Assembly: GCA_039587755.1 (NCBI GenBank)
Contig: JBDHBD010000021.1
Span: 8,027-72,026, forward strand
Length of the DNA: 64,000 nucleotides
Direction of reading: 5' to 3'
From: Gemmatimonadota bacterium
Lineage (GTDB): Bacteria > Gemmatimonadota > Gemmatimonadetes > Palauibacterales > Palauibacteraceae
In this document: positions 2,785-17,547 of the stretch, piece by piece
Position numbering within the stretch: position 1 is the first letter of the stretch
Layout of the letters: every line of letters begins with the position of its first letter
The notes under the pieces: model-generated
Database searches by the model: none
What the model was told of the DNA's origin: nothing
The model's input: the letters and a program-made list of their open reading frames with translations, nothing else
Position numbers and translations under genes: made by a program

Positions 2785-3645
2785 TCACGCGGCGTTTGCC
2801 TCGTTACTCAGGCTGTCGAGCAACGCTCGCGAGCGATCCGCGCGCGCGGTCCAGAAGCGGGCGATGTCGGCCGTGATCTCCGACCATCTCCCATGCAGCT
2901 CGACCCACCGTCGTGCCTCGGCCGCCAGCCAGCTGAGGGTGGCCGCCGCATCCTGTCCGAGGAGTGCCTCGAGCGCGTACTTCCGCTCTCCCGCACGCAA
3001 CCCCAGACCGAGCTCTTCGGCCGCCCGTCGAAGATCGGATCGCACGAGTATCAGGCCGCTCCGCACGGGGCTCAGCAGAGAAGGAACGAATTCTTCGGGC
3101 GACTCCTGGCGCGGATCGGGCAGCGCGGGCGCATCCCGAAGGTGCAGGGGCAACCGCTGCGGGCCGCCCACACGGCTCGCTTCCTCGCGCAGTGCCGCGT
3201 CCAGGACGTTGGCCCACGCGGCGTAGAACCCATCGTGGAGCTGGGAAGTCTTGGCCAAGAAAGCCGGGAGAAAGCTCAGAAGATGCTCCCACAGAAACGT
3301 GTGCCGTACGCGGCGAGCCGCCTGTTTCTCTCGCTCTGAGCCGGCTTCACTCTCCAGCTCGCACAGCTCCGCGTAGCTCGCGAGCATCACGGCCAGGTGA
3401 TCGGGCTCGGGGGGTGGTGCCTCGCCCAGCGCGCGCCAGAAGCCGGCAATTCGGTCTCGAGCCTCTCCACCCAGCATTCCTTCCAGACCGAGATATACGG
3501 AGGCGTACGGATACAGCTGGAACTCGAAAAGCTCGGTGTAGACCGTGTCGTCCGGGACGGGACCGAGGCCCAGCAGATCGGCCAGCCGCTGAGAGGCGGG
3601 CGACGGGGGCTCGACGAGATAGCCGAGCGTTCGAAACAGCTCCAT
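2785..3645 (-). CDS. TorD/DmsD-family cytoplasmic chaperone for molybdoenzyme maturation (putative)
   Basis: 286 aa, acidic helical protein with TorD-like pattern (…ELFEFQLYPYASVYLG…), located immediately downstream of the Mo-bisPGD catalytic subunit gene. Family assignment is from motif memory only. Confidence 0.5.
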   Translation of the reverse strand: MELFRTLGYLVEPPSPASQRLADLLGLGPVPDDTVYTELFEFQLYPYASVYLGLEGMLGGEARDRIAGFWRALGEAPPPEPDHLAVMLASYAELCELESEAGSEREKQAARRVRHTFLWEHLLSFLPAFLAKTSQLHDGFYAAWANVLDAALREEASRVGGPQRLPLHLRDAPALPDPRQESPEEFVPSLLSPVRSGLILVRSDLRRAAEELGLGLRAGERKYALEALLGQDAAATLSWLAAEARRWVELHGRWSEITADIARFWTARADRSRALLDSLSNEANAA

Positions 3646-3661: not shown

Positions 3662-6595
3662 TCAGTCCGCCGCCACGGGCTCGAGGCGGTAGGCCTGCTT
3701 CACCGGCTTCACCGGTCGCATCAGCCAGTGAGGGCGCCGCGTTCCGTCGGGTGATACCTGACGGGCCGAGCGTGTCTTGGCCAGCCATTTCTGGAACACG
3801 CGATGCGCCTTCTCGGTGTCGACCGCGATGTCTCCGTAGCGATCGCCCGACTCGGCGCGCCGCACCCGCACCGCCTGGTGCCAGCAATGCATCCCGGAGA
3901 TCGGGTCGGGGTGCACCGGGAAGGTGAGGTTCTGGTGCACACCCACGTCGGTCCACCAGATGCGTCGCGTGTCGGGATCGTCGGAATCATACGGACGGGC
4001 GCCGCGTTTCCGACCCATTCGCCACCCCGCCCCCTCCCGGTCGAGCTTGACCGTCGCCATCAGCTGCCGCTGGCCCTCATCCCCCAGTTTCCAGCGTCCC
4101 ATGTGATGGCTGCAGGCCACGACGCCCGGGCGGATCCCCTCTGTCACCCACGCCTTCACGACGAAGTAGCCGATCTCCGTCTCCACCCGCACCAGGCCGC
4201 CGGTCTTCATGCCCAGCGGGGCCGCGTCTTCCGGGTGGAGCCACAGCGGGTTCGTGTGGGCGATCTCGTCCAGCCATTTCGCGTTCGCGCTCCGCGTGTG
4301 GATCTGGACGGGAAGGCGGAACGTGGAGATCAGGACCTTCTGGTCCTCGGCCAGCACCTCGGGGTGGACGTGGCTCTTGATGTAGGTCGGCAGGGCGTAC
4401 TCCGGCCATCCCCAGCGCACGAGGGTCGGGGAGTAGAACTCCAGACGGCCGCTCGGGGTGGGAAAGCCGCGCACCACCTTGCCGTTCTGATGCACACCGG
4501 CCAGCCGACGCCCCTCGGCATCCGGCTCGGGGCTTCCCGTCGGGGCCAGATTCAGCGCGGCCGGTTTGGGGGCGTGCGTCCACACGCGTCCGAGTTCATC
4601 CTCCACCGCGTCCTTCAACTCGTCCCGGCCGACCTCTGCCTCGTACAGAGGTCCGATGTCGCGGGCGACCTCGAACGCGCCGTAGCGGCGCATGTAGGCC
4701 AGCGGGTCCAGTCCCTCTCGCTCGGCCGCCTCCGGAAGGCCAGGCACCGAGTTCTCGAAGATATAGCGGTAGTACTCGTCGACGCTCAACCGCTCGCCGG
4801 GGCGCTCGGCGGACTCGACGAACTCGCGGATTCCCAGCTCCCCGTCCGGATCGATGCGCCACGAGAGCTCGAGCCAGAACTCGTTCTCCTCCCACACCTC
4901 ACCGGGGTTCGTGTGGCGCGTGTCTCCGACGGCTTCACCCATGCGCTCGCGAGCCGCCCGCAGCACGGGCTGACGAAAACCGATCCACTGACCGTCGTGC
5001 GTCTCGTACGAGTGTATGTCGTGCCGTTCCGGCCCATGCCCCATGGGCAGGATGTAGTCGGCGAAGTAGGCACTCTCGTTCCACGTCGGTGTGAGAGCGA
5101 CGTGCAGGCCCACCCGTCTTTCGTCGGTCAGCATCTCGAGCCACGAGAAGCCATCCGGGTTCGTCCACACGGGGTTGTAGACGCGGGTGAAGTACACATC
5201 GAGCTTGCCTCGACCGTCCCGCACCAGATGCGGAAGCAGGAAGGAGAGCTCGTACATGGTGAGCGGGTACTCTTCGGGCCACGTGAGTCCGTTCCACGTC
5301 TCGGGGTGGCGAGGCAGACGGATTGGACGCGGTACGAACTTGTTCCACGCATTCGGATAGAGGCCGCCCGGTGTGGCCACGGCCCCCAGGAGGGCGTTGA
5401 GGAAGAAGAGGGTACGCGATACCTGCCACCCGCCCTCGTTCCCAGCGGCCGCGCTTCGCCAGTTATGGGTGGCGAACCGGGTGCCTGCCGTGGCGACGGT
5501 CTCCGCCACCTGACGCAGGACATCGGCCTCGATCCCCGATTCCTCGGCTGCATACTCGAACGTGTAGTCGGCGTACAGCCGCTTCAGCTCGTCCTCGAAT
5601 CGCTCGAAGGTTGGCTCGGCCTCCGGACGGGCCGCCTCCAGGTACTGCCGCCAGTTGAACCACCGCCGTACGTAGTCTCGGTTGTAGAGGTCGTTCTGAA
5701 TCAGGTGGTTCGCGATTGCCAGCAGCACGGCGGCCTCGGAGCCCGGGAACGTGGGCAGCCAGTAGTCGGCGTGGGTGGCGGTGTTCGAGAGACGGGTATC
5801 TAGCACGATGAGCTTGGCCCCCGCCTGCTTCGCCTCGGAGATCCGCTGCGCGTGGGGGTTGAAGTAGTGGCCCGTCTCCAGGTGCGAGCTTACCAGCAGT
5901 ATCACCTTCGCGCGGCTGTGATCGGGGCTCGGACGGTCGATCCCGCACCAGAACTGATATCCCGCACGCGCGCCGGACGAGCAGATGTTCGTGTGAGAGT
6001 TGTGGCCGTCCACCCCCCAGGCGGCCATGATCCGCTCGGTGAAGCCATCCTCCCCTGGACGACCCACATGGTACATGACCTCGCGGTGGCGACCCTCCTG
6101 AATCGCCTTTCGGATGCGCGCCGCTAGATCGTCCAGCGCTTCGTCCCAGCTCACACGGGTCCACTTCCCTTCCCCTCGCTCACCGCCTCGCTTGAGCGGA
6201 TACAGAATCCGATCCGGATCCGTGATCTGATTCCGGGTCGCGGGACCCTTAGCGCAGTTCCGCCCACGGGAGCCCGGATGTTCGGGATTGCCCTCGAACT
6301 TGCGGATCTCGAACGTCTCCCGGTCCACGTAGGCGAGAAGCCCGCACGCCGACTCGCAGTTGAAGCAGGTGGTGGGGACCAGCATGAATCGGCGCTCCAC
6401 CCGCTCGGGCCAGGCCCTGGAGTCCAGCTCGACCCAGTCGTCCCACCGCTCCCTGGGCGGGAAGGCCGCGAGGTGGACGCGGCTCGGGCCCGGATAGAAC
6501 GTCTCGCCGCGGGCCTCGGTCTCGGCCCGCGCGGCGCTCACTCTTCGGTTGACGTCGCTCAGATCCATCGCAGGTCTCCGGCGCGTTCCCGACAT
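3662..6595 (-). CDS. molybdopterin (Mo-bisPGD) oxidoreductase catalytic subunit, PsrA/PhsA/SoeA-like, no evident Tat signal
   Basis: 977 aa with the N-terminal C-x2-C-x3-C…C [4Fe-4S] motif (CFNCESACGLL…GRNCAKG) typical of complex-iron-sulfur molybdoenzymes. No twin-arginine motif with a hydrophobic h-region. Alternative start at 6568 (MDLSDV…, GGAGA RBS). Confidence 0.8.
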   Translation of the reverse strand: MSGTRRRPAMDLSDVNRRVSAARAETEARGETFYPGPSRVHLAAFPPRERWDDWVELDSRAWPERVERRFMLVPTTCFNCESACGLLAYVDRETFEIRKFEGNPEHPGSRGRNCAKGPATRNQITDPDRILYPLKRGGERGEGKWTRVSWDEALDDLAARIRKAIQEGRHREVMYHVGRPGEDGFTERIMAAWGVDGHNSHTNICSSGARAGYQFWCGIDRPSPDHSRAKVILLVSSHLETGHYFNPHAQRISEAKQAGAKLIVLDTRLSNTATHADYWLPTFPGSEAAVLLAIANHLIQNDLYNRDYVRRWFNWRQYLEAARPEAEPTFERFEDELKRLYADYTFEYAAEESGIEADVLRQVAETVATAGTRFATHNWRSAAAGNEGGWQVSRTLFFLNALLGAVATPGGLYPNAWNKFVPRPIRLPRHPETWNGLTWPEEYPLTMYELSFLLPHLVRDGRGKLDVYFTRVYNPVWTNPDGFSWLEMLTDERRVGLHVALTPTWNESAYFADYILPMGHGPERHDIHSYETHDGQWIGFRQPVLRAARERMGEAVGDTRHTNPGEVWEENEFWLELSWRIDPDGELGIREFVESAERPGERLSVDEYYRYIFENSVPGLPEAAEREGLDPLAYMRRYGAFEVARDIGPLYEAEVGRDELKDAVEDELGRVWTHAPKPAALNLAPTGSPEPDAEGRRLAGVHQNGKVVRGFPTPSGRLEFYSPTLVRWGWPEYALPTYIKSHVHPEVLAEDQKVLISTFRLPVQIHTRSANAKWLDEIAHTNPLWLHPEDAAPLGMKTGGLVRVETEIGYFVVKAWVTEGIRPGVVACSHHMGRWKLGDEGQRQLMATVKLDREGAGWRMGRKRGARPYDSDDPDTRRIWWTDVGVHQNLTFPVHPDPISGMHCWHQAVRVRRAESGDRYGDIAVDTEKAHRVFQKWLAKTRSARQVSPDGTRRPHWLMRPVKPVKQAYRLEPVAAD

Positions 6596-6653
6596 CGACG
6601 CGCCATCGCGAATCTCCTATGTGAACGCCTGCGGCTGGCTCGCAGCCTGCCCA

Positions 6654-8273
6654 TCATGCCAACGGCACCGATTGCCCTGCCTGCACGTACGCGTGCTCGA
6701 ACGCCAGCAGGCCGATGAGCGCCGCCGGGCCGGCCACGACCCCGATCCACGGTGCCGCCACGCCGACCAGCGTCAACACGATCCCGACCCAGAAGAAGCC
6801 GCGGTACCGGCCGCGAGTCATCTCGTGCGCCGCCAGGTGAGCGTGTGCCGTCGCGTGTGTGATGGTTGTCTCGCCCGCCACCATGAGGAGGTGGACGAGG
6901 CTCGCACCGGCAAGCAGCCACAGCAGTGGTGTGACTTCTGTCGGGTCGAGCCAGACGGCCACCGGCACCAGCGCGCCCGCTCCCGCCAGGACACCCTGAA
7001 CGAGCAGGTGGGGCGGAAGCAGCGGGTTTTGCCACAGATCGCGTGCTTTCGCCTGGGCGAACAGGTAGGCCGTATAGACCGCTGTGAGCGTGGCGAGCGG
7101 CAGCCCGGCGAACATGAGCCCCCACACCAGCTCGGCACGACCGAACAGGACGCCGAGCAAGTGGAGAGCCAGCACGATGCCGTATCCCCCTACGATGAAG
7201 GCGCCACGGACCAGCCAGCTCTCCCAGCGCCGCCTGGTGAAGATCATGTAGAACCGCTCGGGGTGCTCCAGATCCCAAATCAGCAAGCCACCAGTGAAGG
7301 CCAGGAAGGCGGCGCCGACCACCGGGACACCCCATCGCCAGACGGGGCTCTCCGCATTGATCCAGCCGGCCAAAAGGGCCAGTACGGCCACCAGATACGC
7401 GCCCGCCGCGACCCCCTTGGTCAGGGTGTAGAGGCTGACCCGCCAGTCCCAGGGCATCTTGTGGGGAACGTCGTAGGCCAGCACTGCCGCCGCGGCCGTG
7501 TTGGTGGGACTGACCGGGCCCGCATCGGCCACACGACCGGCCCCCGGCCGCTCGTTCTTGTCGCCGGCGTTCCGACCGTTGTCGGACCCGTGCCCGGGGT
7601 GACCGGAAACCACGTGGCGCAGACCAGTCGTCTGCTCGCTCCACATGAACAGATCGCCCGGCGGCCTGAGCGCCGCGATCGGGTTCAGCGTCGCCTCGTG
7701 CGCGCCCGTATAGAACAGCTTTGGATGCGTCTCCTTCTGGGAACGTCTGACCGAGACGGGCTGACGGTGCACGATACGCGACACCTCGGAGCCCGAATCT
7801 CCCAGATCGCCCACCAGGATCGCCTCCACGGGACACACAACGACGCACGCGGGCTCCAGGCCCATATCGATGCGGTGCGCGCAGAAGTTGCACTTCTCCG
7901 CCGAGTGGTCCTCCGGGTTGATGAAGATCGCGTCGTACGGACAGGCGGCGATGCACGCCTTGCAGCCGATGCAGATGGACTTGTCGAAGTCGACGATCCC
8001 GTCCGCCCGCCGGTACATGGCTCCGGTCGGACACGCGACCGCGCAGGGCGCGAGCTCGCACTGGTTGCAGCGTGTGACCTGGAAGGCACGGCGCGCCTCA
8101 GGGAACACGCCGATGTCCACGTACTTGACGTAGGTCCGGTTGACGGAGAGCGGGACTTCGTTCTCGGACTTGCAGGCGGTGCTACAGGCGTGGCACCCGA
8201 TGCACCGGGTATGATCGACGACCTTGGCCCAGCGCACGGGTGGGGCGCCGGCTTCGGCAGCGGTTGTCGCCAT
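6654..8273 (-). CDS. fused 4x[4Fe-4S] ferredoxin-like subunit + NrfD/PsrC-type integral membrane quinone-interacting subunit
   Basis: N-terminal ~200 aa carry four Cys clusters (CIGCHACSTAC, CNQCELAPCAVACP, CIGCKACIAACP, CNFCAHR…CVVVCP). C-terminal ~330 aa form ~8 predicted transmembrane helices. ATG at 8273 preceded by GGGAG. Confidence 0.75.
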   Translation of the reverse strand: MATTAAEAGAPPVRWAKVVDHTRCIGCHACSTACKSENEVPLSVNRTYVKYVDIGVFPEARRAFQVTRCNQCELAPCAVACPTGAMYRRADGIVDFDKSICIGCKACIAACPYDAIFINPEDHSAEKCNFCAHRIDMGLEPACVVVCPVEAILVGDLGDSGSEVSRIVHRQPVSVRRSQKETHPKLFYTGAHEATLNPIAALRPPGDLFMWSEQTTGLRHVVSGHPGHGSDNGRNAGDKNERPGAGRVADAGPVSPTNTAAAAVLAYDVPHKMPWDWRVSLYTLTKGVAAGAYLVAVLALLAGWINAESPVWRWGVPVVGAAFLAFTGGLLIWDLEHPERFYMIFTRRRWESWLVRGAFIVGGYGIVLALHLLGVLFGRAELVWGLMFAGLPLATLTAVYTAYLFAQAKARDLWQNPLLPPHLLVQGVLAGAGALVPVAVWLDPTEVTPLLWLLAGASLVHLLMVAGETTITHATAHAHLAAHEMTRGRYRGFFWVGIVLTLVGVAAPWIGVVAGPAALIGLLAFEHAYVQAGQSVPLA

Positions 8274-8337
8274 CAACGATTCTCCCGAGAACCGGGCGTC
8301 CCACCCGCGGGGTACGCCCGGTGGATGGCCGTCGAGC

Positions 8338-8916
8338 TTAGATGAAGAGCGACGACTTCGCCGTGAGAGCGCTACCCAGGAACGTGCCGACGCCGCCGTG
8401 CTCGATGTCGTCCATCAGCTCTTCGTCGCGGATCCCCATCACGTTCTGCGACATGTCGCACGCGATGAACGTGACGCCGAGATCGCGCGCTAGCTGCATC
8501 ATCTCCTCGAGCGACTGCACGTTCTCCTGCTTCATCATCGCCCGCAGCATCTTGGCTCCGACGCCGAAGTAGTTCATCCGCGACGCCGGCAAGCTCTTCG
8601 TGCTCCCGGGAGCCATAACCCCCATCATCTTCTGGAAAAACCGCTTGTCCGAGAGCACCGTGTCCTTCTTGAGCGCAGTCAGCCCCCAGAAGGTGAAGAA
8701 CATGTCCACCTTCTGCCCCATCGCGGCTGCCCCGGTGGCGAGCACGAAACTGGCTAGCACCCGGTCCAGGTCCCCGGAGAACACGACCATCGAGACTTTG
8801 TCCTCGGGTTGCGCCTCCTCGAGCTCGGAGATCCGGCTCTCGAGCGCGTCCAGCCGCTGGGCCAGGCCTGTTGTCTCCCCCGTGCCGAGTGTGGAAGCGA
8901 TGTTGTCGACTGGCAT
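8338..8916 (-). CDS. DsrE/DsrF-like (DsrE2/TusD-like) sulfur-relay family protein
   Basis: 193 aa from ATG 8916 (RBS GGGAGGAAAG). Sequence …MVVFSGDLDRVLASFVLATGAAAMGQKVDMFFTFWGL… resembles the DsrE/DsrF-like family. The N-terminal 48 codons of ORF 8338..9060 are rejected. Confidence 0.6.
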   Translation of the reverse strand: MPVDNIASTLGTGETTGLAQRLDALESRISELEEAQPEDKVSMVVFSGDLDRVLASFVLATGAAAMGQKVDMFFTFWGLTALKKDTVLSDKRFFQKMMGVMAPGSTKSLPASRMNYFGVGAKMLRAMMKQENVQSLEEMMQLARDLGVTFIACDMSQNVMGIRDEELMDDIEHGGVGTFLGSALTAKSSLFI

Positions 8917-8935
8917 GCCACTTTCCTCCCGCAGG

Positions 8936-9187
8936 TTATGCACCCTTCTTGACGTAGTGAATGTAGAGGTGGGTGCCGCTCTCGTCGACTGTCTCCTGGT
9001 CGAGCAACTCCATGTCCTTGGCCACCTTGGCCCACCCCTGGAAGTCCTTGATCGAGCCACGGTCCGTGGCTGTGATCTTGAGGATCTGGCCCGGATCGAG
9101 GGCCATGAGCTCCTTGCGCGCCATCACCACGGGCATGGGGCAGTTCATCCCACGCGCGTCCAGCTCTTTGTCGAAAGTCATCTCCAT
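8936..9187 (-). CDS. tusA: TusA-family sulfurtransferase
   Basis: 83 aa MEMTFDKELDARGMNCPMPVV… with the conserved CPxP active-site motif. RBS AAGGAG 8 nt upstream of ATG 9187; the larger ORF 8936..9571 is rejected. Confidence 0.75.
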   Translation of the reverse strand: MEMTFDKELDARGMNCPMPVVMARKELMALDPGQILKITATDRGSIKDFQGWAKVAKDMELLDQETVDESGTHLYIHYVKKGA

Positions 9188-9201: not shown

Positions 9202-10434
9202 CTACACTCTCGCCTCTGCCCCCGCGCCCACCAGCCCGTACGCCTGCGAGAGGGCACAGATGTTCTTTCCGAGCTCGAGCTCCGAGGCCTCGTCCTCGTC
9301 GGGCTCGAGCAGGCCGGCGTTCACCCGTTTGATTTCTACGTACTCGTCCGGGAATTTCGGCAAGCTCTCGAGGATGTACTGGACGAACGGCTCCTCGCCC
9401 TTGTGAACCATCTGCAAGCCGTCGTTGGTTTCCTTGAGCTCGCCCAGCGGGGCCGCGAACTGGCCCGCGTCGTTCGCTTCCGTGCGACCGCTGAAGTGAC
9501 CCGGCATGATCAGCGTCTCGTCCGGCAGCTCGAGCAAACGGGACAGCGACCGGTAGTGGATCGGCGCCCACGTCTCTCCCTTCCCTCCCAGGTCAGGTCG
9601 AGCGATGGAGCGGATGAAGATGGAGTCACCGGTGAACAGGAAGCGGTCGTCGAGATAGAAAACGATGTTCCCGAGTGTGTGCCCCGGGACGTGCATTGCC
9701 CTGATGGTCGCCCCTCCGACAGCGAGCTCCCAGCCCTCCTTCAGGAACTCGTAGTCCATCTCCGCCGGAAGCACGTCGAGCGGGTGGATCCCGTCGTACG
9801 GGTGCAGGAAGTACGGCACCTTCAGCCAATCCGCCAGTGTCCGACCGCCACTGATGTGGTCCGCGTGGCCATGCGTATCGAGCACGGCCGTGATCTCGAA
9901 ATTCTCGGCTTCCGCCAGCTCTGAGTACTGGTCGATGTGGCGCAACGGGTCGATCACCACGCCCCTACCGTCGCTCACCACGACGTGGCTCAGGCAGCCC
10001 CGGGCCAGCCGCTGGATCTGGTAAACGGCGAGCTTGTCCTCTTCGGCCACGGTGCGCAGCTCGTAATGGTTCCCCCACGCGAGCGTGCCGCCCCCAAGAT
10101 GACGTATGTCGTAGCCCAGCGGGCGAAGCGCGTCCACCACGAAATCGGACGTGTCGCCCTTCGCGCACACAGCCAGGATCGGCTCGTCTCTCGGCATCCC
10201 CTCCATCAAGCCGCGATCGTGGGCTTCCTTCACGGACTCTACGAAGTCGAAGCTCTCGCTGGACTCCAGCATCTCGAAGTAGGGAACGTTGATCGAGCGA
10301 AGCGGCTTTGTGCCCTCGACCGGTGCGGCCTCGGCCTCATCGCGGTTGCGGATGTCGAGGATGAAGATGTCCTCCCCGCTGTGGAGCGCGTTGTTCAGCC
10401 TCGCGACCGTCCATTCCCCAGTCGGCGCCGTCAT
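9202..10434 (-). CDS. rhodanese domain fused to MBL-fold metallo-hydrolase (persulfide dioxygenase-like)
   Basis: N-terminal ~100 aa rhodanese-like. C-terminal domain has the metallo-beta-lactamase HxHxDH motif (DTHGHADH) and later His/Asp ligands, an architecture like PDO-rhodanese fusions. RBS GAGAGG. Confidence 0.75.
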   Translation of the reverse strand: MTAPTGEWTVARLNNALHSGEDIFILDIRNRDEAEAAPVEGTKPLRSINVPYFEMLESSESFDFVESVKEAHDRGLMEGMPRDEPILAVCAKGDTSDFVVDALRPLGYDIRHLGGGTLAWGNHYELRTVAEEDKLAVYQIQRLARGCLSHVVVSDGRGVVIDPLRHIDQYSELAEAENFEITAVLDTHGHADHISGGRTLADWLKVPYFLHPYDGIHPLDVLPAEMDYEFLKEGWELAVGGATIRAMHVPGHTLGNIVFYLDDRFLFTGDSIFIRSIARPDLGGKGETWAPIHYRSLSRLLELPDETLIMPGHFSGRTEANDAGQFAAPLGELKETNDGLQMVHKGEEPFVQYILESLPKFPDEYVEIKRVNAGLLEPDEDEASELELGKNICALSQAYGLVGAGAEARV

Positions 10435-10537: not shown

Positions 10538-11119
10538 TCAGATCTTCCGGTTTCGACCGAACAGCAGCCCGAGGGTCGCGGCAAAGAAGACCGATAGCGC
10601 GGCAATCACTGTGAATCTTCGCCACAAGAGGCCGACGGGATCCGCGGCCGACGTCACGACGGTCGCGAAGATGCCGTGGTCCGCCATTCCGCTCAGGAAA
10701 AAGCCACCCGACAGAGCCACGAGCGCCAGGCCGACGGTCCACCCGACCGACGCTCCGCACAGCCAAGCCGTCGTCCCGGCCGCCACCGCGGCACTGGCCG
10801 GGGCTGTCAGCCACAGGACCCACACCCCGATCACCGTGCCAGGCCCGCCCAGGAGAGCACCGAGGAGTGTCCCCGCCACAGCGACTACCGCCCCGCTTGT
10901 CAAACCGAGCAGAAACGCACGGCCGGGCAGAAACGCAGGGCCGGGTGAAGGAGATGCGGGACCGTCCTCGCCGCGCGTGTCCGGCCTAGGCCGAAACAAT
11001 CGAGTAACACGCGCGCAGGAAAGCCAGGTACGGAAGGATCGCCAGCAGGCCCGCCACGATACCGATTCGACCCGGCCACCGGTCACGGGTGCGAAAACCG
11101 AAGACGAGGGCGGCCGCAC
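10538..11119 (-). CDS. hypothetical small integral membrane protein (start uncertain)
   Basis: Hydrophobic Gly/Ala-rich helices. Overlaps the next ORF by 134 nt, so the true start is probably an internal GTG (~10879). Sits directly upstream of the sulfur operon. Confidence 0.3.
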   Translation of the reverse strand: MRPPSSSVFAPVTGGRVESVSWRACWRSFRTWLSCARVTRLFRPRPDTRGEDGPASPSPGPAFLPGRAFLLGLTSGAVVAVAGTLLGALLGGPGTVIGVWVLWLTAPASAAVAAGTTAWLCGASVGWTVGLALVALSGGFFLSGMADHGIFATVVTSAADPVGLLWRRFTVIAALSVFFAATLGLLFGRNRKI

Positions 11120-11321
11120 ACAGAAAGGGCGTTCCGAACTGAAACACGAGTGCCGAGAGAACGAAACCGAACAGCCTGCCGCTCCCCTCGACCTCCGGAG
11201 GCGTCACGGTGCCGAGACCGCCGTTCAGGTACGCGAACAGGGCGGCCACGGCCAGCGCCGTTCCCCCAGCGACCATCGACAGCTGGGCCAGACGTCTTTC
11301 GGCTTCGTTCGATTCCGTCAT
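10986..11321 (-). CDS. hypothetical small integral membrane protein
   Basis: 111 aa with 3-4 predicted TM helices; no recognisable motif. Confidence 0.35.
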   Translation of the reverse strand: MTESNEAERRLAQLSMVAGGTALAVAALFAYLNGGLGTVTPPEVEGSGRLFGFVLSALVFQFGTPFLCAAALVFGFRTRDRWPGRIGIVAGLLAILPYLAFLRACYSIVSA

Positions 11322-12980: not shown

Positions 12981-13925
12981 TTAGCCTTCGTGCGGGAAGC
13001 GCTCCGCCATCACCGCGAGTCGCTCGAACCGCTCGCGGCACACGCGAGTGGTCGTCTCCAGGTCGATCTCGTAGTCCTTGAAGCGCCGCTGACGCTTGAA
13101 GTATTCCGCCGGTGCCGTCCAGTCGGGCAGCACGTTCAGACGGTACGTCTTACCGTTCCACACCTCGTAGAGCGGGAACAGGCCACTCGACACGGCGATC
13201 CGGACGAGCCCTACCGAGTCGGCCGGCTCCGATTTCCACCCGGTCGGACAGGGTGAGTGCATCAGCAGGAAACGGGTTCCGGTGATAGAGAACGCGGTCT
13301 CCAGCTTGCGGCGGAAGTCCACCGGGTGGGCGATCGACAGGGTCGCCGCATACGGGATTCCGTGTGCCACCAGGATGGACATGATGTCCTTCTTGTCCTC
13401 CTTCTTCCCGGTCGGCGTGGTGGTGGTGCGCGCACCGGGCGGGGTGGCCGAGGAACGTTGGCCGCCCGTGTTCCCGTAGATCTCGTTATCGTAACAGATG
13501 TAGAGGATGTTGTCGTCGCGCTCGGCCGCCGCGGAGAGCGTGGCGATGCCGATGTCGTAGGTCCCGCCGTCACCCGCCCAGCAGATCACCTGGCCGCGCT
13601 CCTCGTTCAGGTCGCGGACACAGGCCAGCCCGGACGCCACGGCCGCCGCCGATGCGAAGGTCGTGTTCACCACGGGCGCACCGTAGCTGGTGGTGGGAAA
13701 CGCGCCGGCCGTCACCGCCCCGCAGCAGGCGGGGATCGCGAGGGTGCAGACCTCTCCCGCCTCCTCCAGCGCCCTGCCCAGCATGGTGAGCCCCACGCTC
13801 ATGCCGCACCCGCCGCAGTTCGTGTTGCCGGGGCGGAGCAGGCACTCCTCGGTGCACGGAATGGACGGAACTTCGCCCAGAGCACCCGGGCTCGGCGGTG
13901 TTCTCGTCGCTGTATCGGTCGTCAT
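12981..13925 (-). CDS. 2-oxoacid:ferredoxin oxidoreductase beta subunit (TPP-binding; Por/Vor/Kor type)
   Basis: TPP-binding GDGG…NEIYGNTGGQ motif and Cys ligands for the proximal [4Fe-4S]. ATG 13925 with GGAG RBS. Confidence 0.85.
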   Translation of the reverse strand: MTTDTATRTPPSPGALGEVPSIPCTEECLLRPGNTNCGGCGMSVGLTMLGRALEEAGEVCTLAIPACCGAVTAGAFPTTSYGAPVVNTTFASAAAVASGLACVRDLNEERGQVICWAGDGGTYDIGIATLSAAAERDDNILYICYDNEIYGNTGGQRSSATPPGARTTTTPTGKKEDKKDIMSILVAHGIPYAATLSIAHPVDFRRKLETAFSITGTRFLLMHSPCPTGWKSEPADSVGLVRIAVSSGLFPLYEVWNGKTYRLNVLPDWTAPAEYFKRQRRFKDYEIDLETTTRVCRERFERLAVMAERFPHEG

Positions 13926-13947
13926 GCCTCGCGCTCCTTGCTCCCCT

Positions 13948-15123
13948 TCAGGCGGCGATCCCCATCCACACGGGCCGGTCAGCACGTTCGCGAGTCGTAA
14001 GATCCGCCAGCACCTCCTCGATCATGGCGGGCGTCACGTCGCCTCCGCACAGACCGGTCAGGTAGTCCTGGATCAGCAGATCGCTTCGGGTCGCCTGGAA
14101 GGCGGCCCGGATGTCCTGCCAGAACACGCCGCCCATGCCCGCCGCGTAGTTGCGGTCCAGCACGCCGACCCTGCCGGCGGTACGGCACGCCTCGCGGAGC
14201 GCCTCCTCGGGGAAGGGACGGAACATCTTCAGCTTGATGAGCCCCACCTTTTCGCCCGCATCGCGGCGGGCCTGCACGACTTCGTGTGCCGTCGTGGCGA
14301 TGGAGCCGATCGCGACCAGGATCGTCTCCGCGTCTTTCGTGCCCAGGGTCTGCAGCGCGTCACCCGGGTCGCGGCCAAACATCTCCATGAACTCCGCTCG
14401 AGCCTCCTGGAGAACCGTCGGGACCCTTGACATCGCCTCGTCGATCTCGAGCCGCAGCGACGTGGCCACGTCGGGCCACATCAGACCGCCCAGCGTCTTG
14501 GGATCGTCGTGCCGCATCCGGTGCGGCAGGTCCAGATCCGGAAGGTAGCGGTCCGTCTGGCTCTGATCGGCCAGGTCCGTCTCACCCTGCGTGTGCGACA
14601 GGATGAAGGCGTCGAGCGACACGAGCGCCGGCAACAGGATCCGGTGATCCTCCGCGATGCGGAACGCGAGCAGCGTCGTGTCCATCACCTCCTGATTGCT
14701 CTCGCAGTAGAACTGGATCCAGGGAAAGTCCCGCAGCATCAGCGTGTCGCCGTGATCCGCCCAGATGTTCCAGGGAGGTCCGAGCGTGCGGTTCACCGTC
14801 GCCATCACGATCGGGAGCCGATAGTAGCCGGCTACCATGATGTTCTCGACCATGTAGGCGAGGCCGTTGGACGAGCTGGCGGTGAACGCGCGCGCGCCGG
14901 CGAGCGAAGCTCCGATCGACACTCCCATCGCGCTGTGCTCGCTCTCGACCGGCACGACCCGACACTTTGTGAACGGAAACTTCGCCACGTACTCGACGAT
15001 CTCCGTCTGTGGCGTGATCGGATAGATCCCGCACGCGGCACCCCGCGCTTCGCGGTTCGCTTCCGCCGCGACGCTCAGCGCGTGACCTGCGGCGTGATTC
15101 CCGGTGACGACTTCTACAGGCAT
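13948..15123 (-). CDS. 2-oxoacid:ferredoxin oxidoreductase alpha subunit
   Basis: Typical PorA/KorA N-terminus (…VVTGNHAAGHA…GIYPITPQTEIVEY…). Start ATG 15123 with GGAG RBS. Confidence 0.85.
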   Translation of the reverse strand: MPVEVVTGNHAAGHALSVAAEANREARGAACGIYPITPQTEIVEYVAKFPFTKCRVVPVESEHSAMGVSIGASLAGARAFTASSSNGLAYMVENIMVAGYYRLPIVMATVNRTLGPPWNIWADHGDTLMLRDFPWIQFYCESNQEVMDTTLLAFRIAEDHRILLPALVSLDAFILSHTQGETDLADQSQTDRYLPDLDLPHRMRHDDPKTLGGLMWPDVATSLRLEIDEAMSRVPTVLQEARAEFMEMFGRDPGDALQTLGTKDAETILVAIGSIATTAHEVVQARRDAGEKVGLIKLKMFRPFPEEALREACRTAGRVGVLDRNYAAGMGGVFWQDIRAAFQATRSDLLIQDYLTGLCGGDVTPAMIEEVLADLTTRERADRPVWMGIAA

Positions 15124-15171
15124 GGCGGCGGCTCCTGGCTCTCGTGGCGCTGGCTGGCCCTCAGACGGCAT

Positions 15172-17547
15172 TCAGAGATGACTCATGAAGATCACGTTGC
15201 GGGGGCACTCGGTGACACAGATCCCGCACCCCTTGCAGTACGCATAGTCGAACACCAGCTGGTGCCCGACCCGCTTGAGTACCCCCTCGGGGCAATAGGT
15301 GACACAGAGATCGCACTCGTTGCACACGCCGCACGACAGGCACCGCTTCGCCTCGCTCGGATCCGTCAAGCCCATGTGGATCTCGTCGAACGTGGACTGG
15401 CGGGTCGTCATGGGCAGGCTGGCGCCCTCCTGACCCGACTGACGCTCGAACAGGTGGAGCCGCATGGCGTCGGGGCGGATCACGTCGTCGTGCCAGACGT
15501 CCACGTCCCGCCGGTCCGCGGCGTGCTCGGTGATCTCCGTCCGCTCGCCGCTCAGCGCACCATGAATGTGGATTGCAGAGCGTCGTCCGCTCCCGATCGC
15601 GCCTGCCACCGTTCCGTCGTTGGTCGCTAGGTCGCCGATCGCGAACACGGGCGTCTCCAGCAGCCCGAGCAGCTCTTCCCCTTCCCTCACCTCGGTCCCC
15701 TCCGGGAATACGCTGAGGTCGGGAGATTGCCCGAGTGCGAGGATCACGCGGCTGCACTGCAGCTCGAAGTCCGACCCAGGAATCTCCACCGGGCGACGAC
15801 GGCTGGACTTGTCGGGTTCGCCGAGCTCCATGCGCCGGCAGGTGAGCCGATAGCCAGCGCCGTCGGGGCCCGCAGCGTGGGCCGAGGCGGCTTCCGACTC
15901 CGCGACTGTCCCCTCGGCTGCGGAACCGTCCGGCTGCAGCGAGATCGGTTGGACCAGATAATCGAGCTGCACTCCCTCCTCGAGTGCCTCGTCGATCTCC
16001 TCCGCGATGGCCGGCATTTCTTCCCGCGTGCGGCGGTACACGACGCGAGCGCTGTTCGCGCCGAGACGCAGCGAGGAGCGGGCGGCATCCATCGCCGTGT
16101 TCCCGCCACCCACCACGACCACATCCTCTCCGTCCACCCGAACGCGGCCGCGTCGCACCAGGTCGAGGAAGTCGATCCCCTGATCGACGGCTGGGGTGTC
16201 GCCGATCCCCAGCCGCAGTCCGCGCAGCTCCTGCAGGCCGGTCGCGACGAGCACGGCGTCGTGCTGGCCGGCCATCTCCATGAGCCCGCGCCGATCGATC
16301 GGATGCTCGGTGACGGCCTCCACCCCGAGCGCCAGGATGCGACCGATCTCGTGGTCCAGCACGTCCTCGGGCAGCCGAAAGCGTGGAATCCCCGAGCGAA
16401 GGAGCCCCCCCAGGTCAGCCGTCGATTCGTACACCGTGACCCGATAGCCATAACGAGCGAGATGGTAGGCGGCGGTCAGCCCGGCCGGCCCCGAGCCGAC
16501 GACCGCCACCCGCTCATCGTGAACCTCCACGGGGTTGAGCGCCGCGTTCCCGTTGTCGCCGGCGTAACGTTCCAGCTGCCGCACGTTGACCGCGCCGTCC
16601 AGATCGATCCGATTGCACGAAGCCATGCACGGGGCCGGGCACACCCGTCCGCACACAGCCGGGAACGGGCTGCTCTCCAGCAGGATCTCGAGCGCTCGGT
16701 CGGGGTCGTCGTGGGCCAGGGCGTGCAAGAACCCCTGCACGTCGTTCCCGGCCGGGCAGACATGGTTGCAGGGAGGGATGTACTGCTGTCGGTGCGGCTG
16801 CTCCGTAGCCCACTGTCCCGTCTCGATCCCCGGCAGGTCGCCACCCGCCCCTTCGAGAAAGCTCGGTCCCCGTGGAACGATCGTGTACGGGGCGGCCGTT
16901 TCCGCCGACTCCTCTTGGATTCCCGCCTCTTCCGCCCCTTCCGGCACTGCTCCCCCTGGCGCGGTCGCTTCCTCCAGGCCGACGCCGGCGTCGGCCGCGG
17001 CATCTCCGGCAAGGCGCAGCGCCTCGTGCGCCTGGCTCGCCGCCGCGATGTTCGGCCCCACGAAACCCAGGTGCTCGAGAGCGTCGTGAATCTCCGTTAG
17101 CTCGAAGCCGAGCAGCCGCGCGGCGGCCCCGGCGAGCGCCGTGTTGACAATCGGCACACTTCGGGTGCCCAGCTTGTTGGCGCGGGCGATAGCGGTGGCG
17201 TCCACCGTCGCGACGGGATTGTCCGGAAACTGCTCCGCCAGATCCTGCGGCTCCTTCGTGGTGTTGATCAGGATCCAGCCGCCGGGCTTCAGGCCACCCG
17301 TGATGGCGGATCCGACCAGGGTCGGATCGAGGACGATGATGTGGTCGGGCGAGTAGATCAGGTTTCGGTTGGCGATCGGCTCGTCATCGTAGCGACAGAA
17401 GGCCTGGATGGGCGCCCCTGATCGCTCCGCGGCGTACAGACCGAAGGCCTGCACCGACTGGCCGAGCAGGAAACGGGAGGTGGCGATGATCTTGGCCAGG
17501 GTCACACCACCCTGACCGCCTCTCCCATGAATGCGGATCTCGACCAT
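15172..17547 (-). CDS. fusion protein: OFOR gamma subunit - GltD/NfnB-like NAD(P)H-dependent FAD/[FeS] oxidoreductase - OFOR delta (2x[4Fe-4S] ferredoxin) subunit
   Basis: Residues 1-~185 PorG-like. Residues ~250-690 carry GltD-type Cys clusters (CNHVCPAGNDV…CGRVCPAPCMASC) and two Rossmann GxGxxG motifs (VVGSGPAGLTAA; VVVGGGNTAMDAA). Residues ~700-791 have two CxxCxxCxxxCP motifs typical of PorD. RBS GAGGAG. Confidence 0.8.
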   Translation of the reverse strand: MVEIRIHGRGGQGGVTLAKIIATSRFLLGQSVQAFGLYAAERSGAPIQAFCRYDDEPIANRNLIYSPDHIIVLDPTLVGSAITGGLKPGGWILINTTKEPQDLAEQFPDNPVATVDATAIARANKLGTRSVPIVNTALAGAAARLLGFELTEIHDALEHLGFVGPNIAAASQAHEALRLAGDAAADAGVGLEEATAPGGAVPEGAEEAGIQEESAETAAPYTIVPRGPSFLEGAGGDLPGIETGQWATEQPHRQQYIPPCNHVCPAGNDVQGFLHALAHDDPDRALEILLESSPFPAVCGRVCPAPCMASCNRIDLDGAVNVRQLERYAGDNGNAALNPVEVHDERVAVVGSGPAGLTAAYHLARYGYRVTVYESTADLGGLLRSGIPRFRLPEDVLDHEIGRILALGVEAVTEHPIDRRGLMEMAGQHDAVLVATGLQELRGLRLGIGDTPAVDQGIDFLDLVRRGRVRVDGEDVVVVGGGNTAMDAARSSLRLGANSARVVYRRTREEMPAIAEEIDEALEEGVQLDYLVQPISLQPDGSAAEGTVAESEAASAHAAGPDGAGYRLTCRRMELGEPDKSSRRRPVEIPGSDFELQCSRVILALGQSPDLSVFPEGTEVREGEELLGLLETPVFAIGDLATNDGTVAGAIGSGRRSAIHIHGALSGERTEITEHAADRRDVDVWHDDVIRPDAMRLHLFERQSGQEGASLPMTTRQSTFDEIHMGLTDPSEAKRCLSCGVCNECDLCVTYCPEGVLKRVGHQLVFDYAYCKGCGICVTECPRNVIFMSHL

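Follow-up and report, generated by a model that had tools for sequence, protein, structure and literature searches.

We report that, in a 64,000-nt stretch of a Gemmatimonadota contig (JBDHBD010000021.1; hereafter the window), a single gene encodes a fusion of two proteins known as separate subunits of NrfD-anchored complex iron-sulfur molybdoenzymes, namely an electron-transfer subunit with four [4Fe-4S] clusters (B; iron-sulfur, FeS) and an NrfD/PsrC-type membrane anchor (C). This fusion (hereafter fused BC) is the normal state of its family, which spans hundreds of species in six or more phyla, archaea included. The fused architecture is real, ancient and widespread, and is best regarded as a variant architecture within an enzyme type that is already known. 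With a probability of roughly 0.6, we consider fused BC to be the electron-transfer/quinone module of a cytoplasm-facing, Soe-like sulfite:quinone oxidoreductase, a three-module enzyme with a molybdenum-bis(pyranopterin guanine dinucleotide) (Mo-bisPGD) cofactor, whose putative catalytic subunit (A) is encoded directly downstream.

The domain structure of the encoded protein is clear (coordinates in Table 1). Its longest open reading frame (ORF) form, 6654..8276 on the minus strand, opens with a TTG one codon before an ATG at 8273, which is preceded by GGGAG and is the likely start. Pfam recognizes Fer4_11 at amino acids (aa) 64-156 (1e-21) and NrfD (PF03916) at aa 272-508 (1e-15), and NCBIfam models of the NrfC/TtrB/DsrO type align to aa 6-200, each below its family cut-off. 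Among solved structures, PsrB of Thermus polysulfide reductase (2vpw_B; 7e-45, aa 14-191) is closest to the N-terminal part, whose 16 Cys are arranged in four cluster motifs (24/27/30/34, 69/72/77/81, 101/104/107/111 and 128/131/143/147), all of them invariant among 121 aligned homologues. In the C-terminal part, eight membrane helices were modelled by AlphaFold2 with a predicted local distance difference test (pLDDT) score above 90 (two runs, with alignments of 48 and 121 sequences), and Tyr400, the equivalent of PsrC Tyr130, is invariant. The protein thus combines the two features expected of B and C in NrfD-anchored complex iron-sulfur molybdoenzymes, the 16-Cys four-cluster ferredoxin module and the haem-free NrfD/PsrC fold of two four-helix bundles. 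The Pfam matches, the 16 Cys and the eight modelled helices accordingly bear out an earlier reading of this stretch (the original prediction), which had placed B-type and C-type subunits in a single polypeptide.

The two domains are joined by a linker whose length varies from 1 to 53 aa across the fused family and whose column identity is about 0.2, versus 0.7-0.86 in the FeS domain; it is flanked by a conserved B-type tail and by the conserved amphipathic start of the anchor. Such a poorly conserved, Ala/Gly/Pro-rich junction is the product expected from simple read-through of neighbouring B and C genes. The GC content at third codon positions (GC3) is 0.85 along the whole fused ORF, compared to 0.82-0.86 in the adjacent genes, and a metagenome contig with independent gene calls is 100% identical over the fused gene. 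An overlapping ORF in an alternative frame, which the original prediction had left unresolved, is a shadow frame as judged by GC3 and Arg content: the fused gene is 67% GC, and the translations of the two shadow ORFs found here contain 13-21% Arg.

At least 584 stretches matching the fused protein were confirmed in contigs representing one genome per species, and 80 related loci were kept for the locus counts given below. In each of these 80 loci, a single uninterrupted high-scoring segment pair extends from residue 20 or earlier to residue 536 or later of the fused protein, such that the separate B and C polypeptides typical of NrfD-anchored molybdoenzymes are replaced by one ORF. The stop codon or frameshift between the domains, named beforehand as the observation that would speak against a fusion, was encountered in none of them. 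An A gene follows downstream on the same strand in 75 of the 80 loci. A protein search returned 8000 scored matches, the best 120 of which all measure 499-589 aa and contain both Pfam domains, at 62-90% identity to the query, with hosts among the Gemmatimonadota, Acidobacteriota, Armatimonadota, 'Deltaproteobacteria' and others. After clustering at 50%, both domains were present in 101 of the 150 best representatives, and full-length divergent representatives reach down to 45% identity in the FeS part and about 31% in the NrfD part. Annotated genomes of cultured organisms also contain the fusion, namely those of Thermomicrobium roseum (510 aa, annotated as '4Fe-4S dicluster domain-containing protein'), Rhodococcus jostii RHA1 (506 aa, on plasmid pRHL3) and the archaeon Natrinema halophilum (607 aa, annotated as nrfD). 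The reading of one joined polypeptide is thus borne out, but within its own family such a fusion is the rule and no rarity.

Single-domain relatives also occur in the databases. Most of them are truncated, bear frameshift-like Arg/Gly/Pro tails, or have tails that already hold the NrfD start motif, and the short entries stop mostly in out-of-frame junk or at contig ends. FeS-only entries were therefore mostly rejected as natural split forms, with the exception of a few located on long contigs (P0337 and P0336), which were not assigned to truncation or frameshift. The fused protein is already present in RefSeq under generic names, and JGI gives it both COG names; full-text literature searches found no description of a B-C fusion. 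A review of NrfD-like subunits mentions no such fusion, and its entries for SoeC are confined to Proteobacteria, Clostridia and Aquificae (PMC8076601).

With regard to membrane orientation, the original prediction that the N-terminal FeS domain lies in the cytoplasm agrees with the lack of room for a signal peptide, the lack of a Tat motif on either the fused protein or the Mo subunit, and a positive-inside bias. In most full-length divergent fused representatives, the first Cys motif opens at residue 12-25, which leaves no space for a signal peptide. A twin-arginine translocation (Tat)-like N-terminus was found in no member of either homologue set (118 for A, 115 for the fused protein), the same heuristic having flagged 84 of 118 Campylobacterota A homologues as a positive control; the twin-arginine signal that characterizes the catalytic subunits of the periplasm-facing Psr/Phs/Ttr/Nrf/Dms group is absent here. 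Moreover, the segments on the FeS side (N-terminal side, loops 2-3, 4-5 and 6-7, and C-terminus) carry on average 13.6 Lys plus Arg versus 3.2 in the opposite loops among 107 fused sequences, and an excess on the FeS side is present in 106 of the 107. This bias is reversed in the anchors of split, Tat-linked systems (2 vs 10 in Azoarcus sp. KH32C and 4 vs 12 in Sulfurovum mangrovi). From the missing Tat signals together with the reversed charge bias, we infer that the FeS domain is cytoplasmic and that the NrfD domain is inverted, that is, predicted to lie upside-down relative to the Psr/Nrf/Dms anchors with both its N- and C-termini (aa 258-539) in the cytoplasm. SoeC is the one NrfD protein for which an inverted orientation has been predicted, not yet demonstrated (PMC8076601). 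In an inverted NrfD domain, the face with the FeS-docking and quinone sites would still meet the FeS domain.

This predicted topology suggests why a fusion can be tolerated. We know of no export route for an N-terminal, cofactor-loaded domain placed ahead of eight transmembrane (TM) helices. In enzymes that face the periplasm, the FeS subunit, already folded and loaded with its cofactors, is exported by Tat and in many cases carried along by the catalytic subunit, whereas polytopic membrane proteins are inserted co-translationally (PMC10924467). A periplasm-facing B subunit must thus cross by Tat together with A, and therefore cannot head a co-translationally inserted protein of eight TM helices. 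In a cytoplasm-facing enzyme nothing would be exported, the constraint would be gone and neighbouring B and C genes would be free to merge, a merger which would fix 1:1 stoichiometry and proximity. A cytoplasmic facing would nevertheless be permissive rather than obligatory for fusion, since the described SoeABC enzymes are split. In line with the export argument, every fused sequence examined lacks a signal, and both retrieved split relatives (gene order B-C-A-TorD) are Tat-dependent.

The partner of fused BC has the hallmarks of a Mo/W-bisPGD catalytic subunit. It matches the Pfam families Molybdop_Fe4S4, Molybdopterin and Molydop_binding, carries an N-terminal FS0 cluster motif (C68-x2-C-x3-C plus C105), and its Cys196 aligns with the Mo-ligand Cys173 of PsrA, as is expected of this enzyme group; its identity across phyla is 75-80%. 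SoeABC is described as an NrfD-like anchor with cytoplasmic FeS and Mo subunits and a Cys ligand (PMC5114278, PMC10100899). A cytoplasm-facing, Cys-ligated Mo enzyme wired to quinone corresponds to this published description, hence the Soe-like assignment.

The genomic surroundings point in the same direction. On the minus strand, the operon runs rhodanese-metallo-beta-lactamase (MBL), TusA, DsrE2-like, fused BC, A and chaperone, and the rhodanese-MBL/TusA/DsrE2 set also lies upstream on the R. jostii RHA1 plasmid, there together with ArsR-type regulators. The best PDB relatives of the rhodanese-MBL protein are 3tp9 ('beta-lactamase and rhodanese domain protein') and 3r2u (metallo-beta-lactamase family); it further matches the ETHE1 persulfide dioxygenase 4chl, and 4ysb, another relative, which we take to be a persulfide dioxygenase (PDO). 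Complete sHdr-LbpA-TusA-DsrE-ArsR clusters adjoin BC-A divergently in two loci (L089 and L004). Across the 80 loci, an MBL-type gene is present in 32, TusA and DsrE in 8, and an ArsR-type gene in 10, upstream of BC in eight of these. These rhodanese-PDO-like, TusA, DsrE2 and sHdr-LbpA genes belong to cytoplasmic sulfite-making systems: both sHdr-LbpA (PMC11094781) and PDO (PMC13047784) yield sulfite from sulfane sulfur in the cytoplasm, and the sHdr cluster of T. roseum is strongly induced in the stationary phase (PMC6776052). A genomic link to cytoplasmic sulfite generation, as known for SoeABC, is thus found in the window, in RHA1, and in L089 and L004.

Taken together, these results suggest a model in which cytoplasmic sulfite, generated by the rhodanese-PDO/TusA/DsrE2 set or elsewhere by sHdr-LbpA, would be oxidized to sulfate at the Cys-ligated Mo centre of the A subunit. 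Electrons would pass from FS0 through the four clusters of the N-terminal FeS domain to a quinone, whose probable site is the TM1-4 bundle, close to the cytoplasmic side. Sulfite oxidation and quinone reduction would then take place on the same side of the membrane, so that a redox loop would be expected only if the NrfD domain itself moved protons.

Several observations weigh against this assignment. The likeness to Soe is drawn from published SoeABC descriptions; NCBIfam has no Soe model, a tblastn search of A against PLSDB plasmids retrieved no SoeABC-type sequence, only fused-type, Tat-type and unrelated enzymes, and the homologues retrieved with the Sulfurovum A subunit as query were all Campylobacterota proteins. 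The NCBIfam matches that were obtained (PhsA, TtrB and NrfC) are all far below their cut-offs. The gene order BC-A-chaperone differs from the A-B-C order of Sulfobacillus SoeABC (PMC5114278). In addition, the sole split relatives retrieved (Campylobacterota and Azoarcus) are Tat-exported and share the order B-C-A-TorD, by which the fused family may be nearer to them than to Soe. More than half of the 80 loci contain no sulfur gene within the examined flanks, and having TusA and DsrE2 as neighbours is just as compatible with a persulfide carried on a protein as the substrate. Finally, AlphaFold2 gave a pLDDT of 30-85 for the FeS domain, too low to define the interdomain geometry, and below 40 for the linker.

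The most serious rival reading retains the cytoplasm-facing module and the electron flow to quinone, and assigns to what would be a distinct clade another sulfur substrate, such as a TusA/DsrE2-bound persulfide or rhodanese-made thiosulfate. TusA and DsrE2-like genes adjoin the operon in the window, in RHA1 and in several metagenome-assembled genomes (MAGs), the gene order is unlike soeABC (PMC5114278), and the closest retrievable split relatives are not Soe. The strong conservation of A across phyla also suggests a tightly constrained, specific function, which no curated model names. On the other hand, TusA and DsrE accompany only a tenth of the loci, and in known pathways TusA/DsrE carriers supply Dsr, sHdr or PDO, which release sulfite (PMC11094781). 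As the sHdr/PDO neighbours already cover sulfane-sulfur oxidation, sulfite would be the step left unmet. We take this reading seriously, while regarding it as rather unlikely.

A reductive role is less likely still. A cytoplasm-facing reductase of the Sre/Psr/Ttr type would draw electrons from quinol for the intracellular reduction of sulfur, polysulfide, thiosulfate or tetrathionate. The closest relatives among solved structures and curated models are indeed reductases (PsrA/PsrB, PhsA and TtrB), and bacterial SreA clusters with SoeA (PMC10100899). The neighbouring genes, in contrast, are oxidative sulfur genes (PDO-like and sHdr-LbpA), and a quinol oxidase with both sites in the cytoplasm would conserve no energy. 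Furthermore, the named carriers (Pyrinomonadaceae, Gemmatimonadota, Rhodococcus, T. roseum and haloarchaea) are presumably mostly aerobic heterotrophs, which also argues against a reductase, and we consider this role improbable.

An exported, periplasm-facing Psr-like enzyme, in which the FeS domain and Mo subunit would both lie outside and the NrfD domain would have its ordinary orientation, seems highly improbable. We know of no way to export such an N-terminal domain, neither protein bears a Tat or Sec signal in any homologue, and the positive-inside bias is opposite to that of the Tat-linked relatives. In favour of this arrangement stands the fact that all structurally solved NrfD complexes face the periplasm (PMC8076601), against it also the Tat principle outlined above (PMC10924467). 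That the fusion is an assembly or sequencing artefact, with two distinct genes, B and C, run together by a lost stop or a frameshift, is negligibly probable: FeS-only and NrfD-only relatives exist, but the same unbroken frame recurs in all 80 loci and in complete genomes of cultured strains, GC3 stays constant through the entire ORF, and most short database entries break off at the end of a contig or run into out-of-frame sequence.

Beyond the Soe-like assignment, we tentatively raise the possibility, itself doubtful, that fused BC and its Mo partner of about 970 aa form a separate, very widespread and unusually conserved cytoplasm-facing clade which is not orthologous to SoeABC. Such a clade, missed by screens for a three-subunit Soe, might constitute an overlooked link from sulfite or sulfane sulfur to quinone in aerobic heterotrophs that live in soils, sediments and salterns and belong to the Acidobacteriota, Gemmatimonadota, Binatia, Actinomycetota, Thermomicrobia and Halobacteria. 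It might also point to a general rule by which B and C can fuse only where the NrfD module is inverted.

Aerobic heterotrophs carrying PDO or sHdr have to get rid of cytoplasmic sulfite. If the Soe-like reading is correct, the fused enzyme would do this and deliver the electrons to the respiratory chain, and sulfur-cycle surveys seeking three separate Soe subunits may under-count the family. A study of the Bohai Sea reports SoeABC as not detected (PMC12345210), and the fused family may escape such screens. Among the matches listed, the closest genomes (L002, L003, L030, L057, L060 and L072) are Gemmatimonadota MAGs with names beginning in BHB10- and M8-, which, judging by matching station names, appear to be tied to that study. 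A natural single-chain FeS-NrfD protein with inverted topology would also be a handy object for studying quinone binding and possible proton movement by NrfD proteins, and cultured, partly genetically tractable carriers such as R. jostii RHA1 exist. The fusion itself, as a simple joining of adjacent genes, will not surprise the specialist; of greater interest is what this very conserved enzyme family as a whole is and how much it weighs ecologically.

Table 1. Fused gene, its domains, overlapping frames and operon neighbours (positions in the window)
Feature	Position	Strand	Remarks
Fused FeS-NrfD gene	6654..8273	-	539 aa, 57.8 kDa; stop codon 6654-6656
PsrB/NrfC-type four-cluster ferredoxin domain	7674..8234	-	aa 14-200, 16 invariant Cys
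Interdomain linker	7503..7595	-	aa 227-257, 31 aa, Ala/Gly/Pro-rich, variable
NrfD/PsrC-type domain	6657..7502	-	aa 258-539, eight TM helices, conserved C-terminal tail; FEHAYVQAGQSVPLA
Shadow ORF	6549..8345	+	GC3 0.68, 13% Arg; not a gene
Shadow ORF	6559..8061	-	GC3 0.505; overlapping frame, not a gene
Catalytic Mo/W-bisPGD subunit (A)	3662..6568	-	968 aa, 110.6 kDa; directly downstream of fused gene
TorD/NarJ-family assembly chaperone	2785..3645	-	Pfam Nitrate_red_del, NCBIfam TorD
DsrE2-like sulfur-carrier protein	8338..8919	-	Pfam DrsE_2 1e-48; gene call on identical contig; start uncertain, 150-193 aa
TusA sulfurtransferase	8936..9187	-	83 aa, CPMP motif; Pfam TusA 2e-18
Rhodanese + persulfide-dioxygenase-like metallo-beta-lactamase fusion	9202..10434	-	410 aa; Pfam Rhodanese + Lactamase_B

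The surroundings of the BC-A pair vary among the related loci. A TorD/NarJ-type chaperone gene follows A in 28 of the 80; in R. jostii RHA1 (L083:8799-9968) and Natrinema (L084:8897-10057), an Mrp/NBP35-type FeS-cluster carrier ATPase follows A and replaces the TorD-like chaperone. The gap between BC and A exceeds 400 nt in 31 of 75 loci, with inserts of 0.5-6 kb in Pyrinomonadaceae/Blastocatellia (L014, L054 and about 30 others). By eye, one such insert (L014:9512-11541) contains a DinB-like ORF, an IS200/RAYT-type transposase ORF and a small toxin-antitoxin-like pair, and another (L054:8519-14727) contains five ORFs. On the T. roseum megaplasmid, a CsoR/RcnR-family regulator (L082:4084-4362; Pfam Trns_repr_metal) lies directly upstream of BC-A and, again by eye, resembles the persulfide sensor CstR in having two Cys and lacking a His at the copper-ligand position. 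In the window, two small hydrophobic ORFs of 193 and 111 aa (10538..11321, minus strand), without a Pfam match, are located upstream of the rhodanese-MBL gene and may encode membrane proteins of the same transcription unit. Further away, 2-oxoacid:ferredoxin oxidoreductase genes occupy 12981..17547 (minus strand), among them a 791-aa ORF (15172..17547, minus strand) that represents an unusual fusion of POR gamma, a GltD-like Fer4_20 and pyridine-nucleotide-disulfide flavoprotein part and a C-terminal ferredoxin motif.

Two known architectures were considered and rejected. Tail-anchored FeS proteins of the HybA/FdnH type carry a twin-arginine signal and a single C-terminal TM helix (PMC10924467), in contrast to the signal-free protein with eight TM helices described here. 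In Alternative complex III, ActB fuses Mo-like and FeS modules rather than FeS module and anchor, and the Mo cofactor has been lost (PMC10100899); ActC crosses the membrane with 10 TM helices, in a complex oriented towards the periplasm (PMC8076601), so that domain order and TM count rule this architecture out.

Unlike the fused enzyme, PsrABC of Thermus thermophilus (PDB 2VPW-2VPZ) is exported by Tat, faces the periplasm and has B and C as two proteins. His21 and Asn18 of PsrC correspond to Tyr282 and Val279 in the fused protein, and the A subunit is about 200 aa longer than its Psr counterpart. The uncharacterized B-C-A-TorD operons of Campylobacterota (Sulfurovum, Sulfurimonas) and Azoarcus sp. 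KH32C have the same gene order, with 34-46% identity in A (34% for Azoarcus) and 44-48% in B, and in the Campylobacterota the likeness extends to an N-terminal extension on A and a PLS/PLA tail at the C-terminus of C. They differ in the twin-arginine signals on A, in the separate B and C genes and in the opposite loop charge bias of C. Such signals are clear in the Azoarcus A subunit and in the intact Campylobacterota relatives (1090-1120 aa) of a frameshifted Sulfurovum copy; in the latter, on a Sulfurovum mangrovi plasmid (L086:4977-8166), the unannotated A subunit is split over two frames by a frameshift or as a pseudogene.

Compared to SoeABC of Allochromatium vinosum, Aquifex aeolicus and Ruegeria pomeroyi, the system described here differs in having B and C in one polypeptide, in its order BC-A-TorD versus A, B, C as in TPY_0113-0115 (PMC5114278), and in its hosts (Gemmatimonadota, Acidobacteriota, Binatia, Actinomycetota, Thermomicrobia and Halobacteria), which fall outside the list of SoeC carriers in the review (PMC8076601). 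The two have in common an NrfD anchor of eight TM helices, predicted to be inverted with the quinone site on the cytoplasmic side (PMC8076601). They further share a Mo-bisPGD subunit that has FS0 and a Cys ligand but lacks a Tat signal, an FeS module of four clusters, A and B modules that are cytoplasmic and without signal peptides, and an association with cytoplasmic sulfite-producing systems. Their catalytic subunits are also of similar mass, about 109 kDa for SoeA and about 110 kDa for the A subunit of the fused system.

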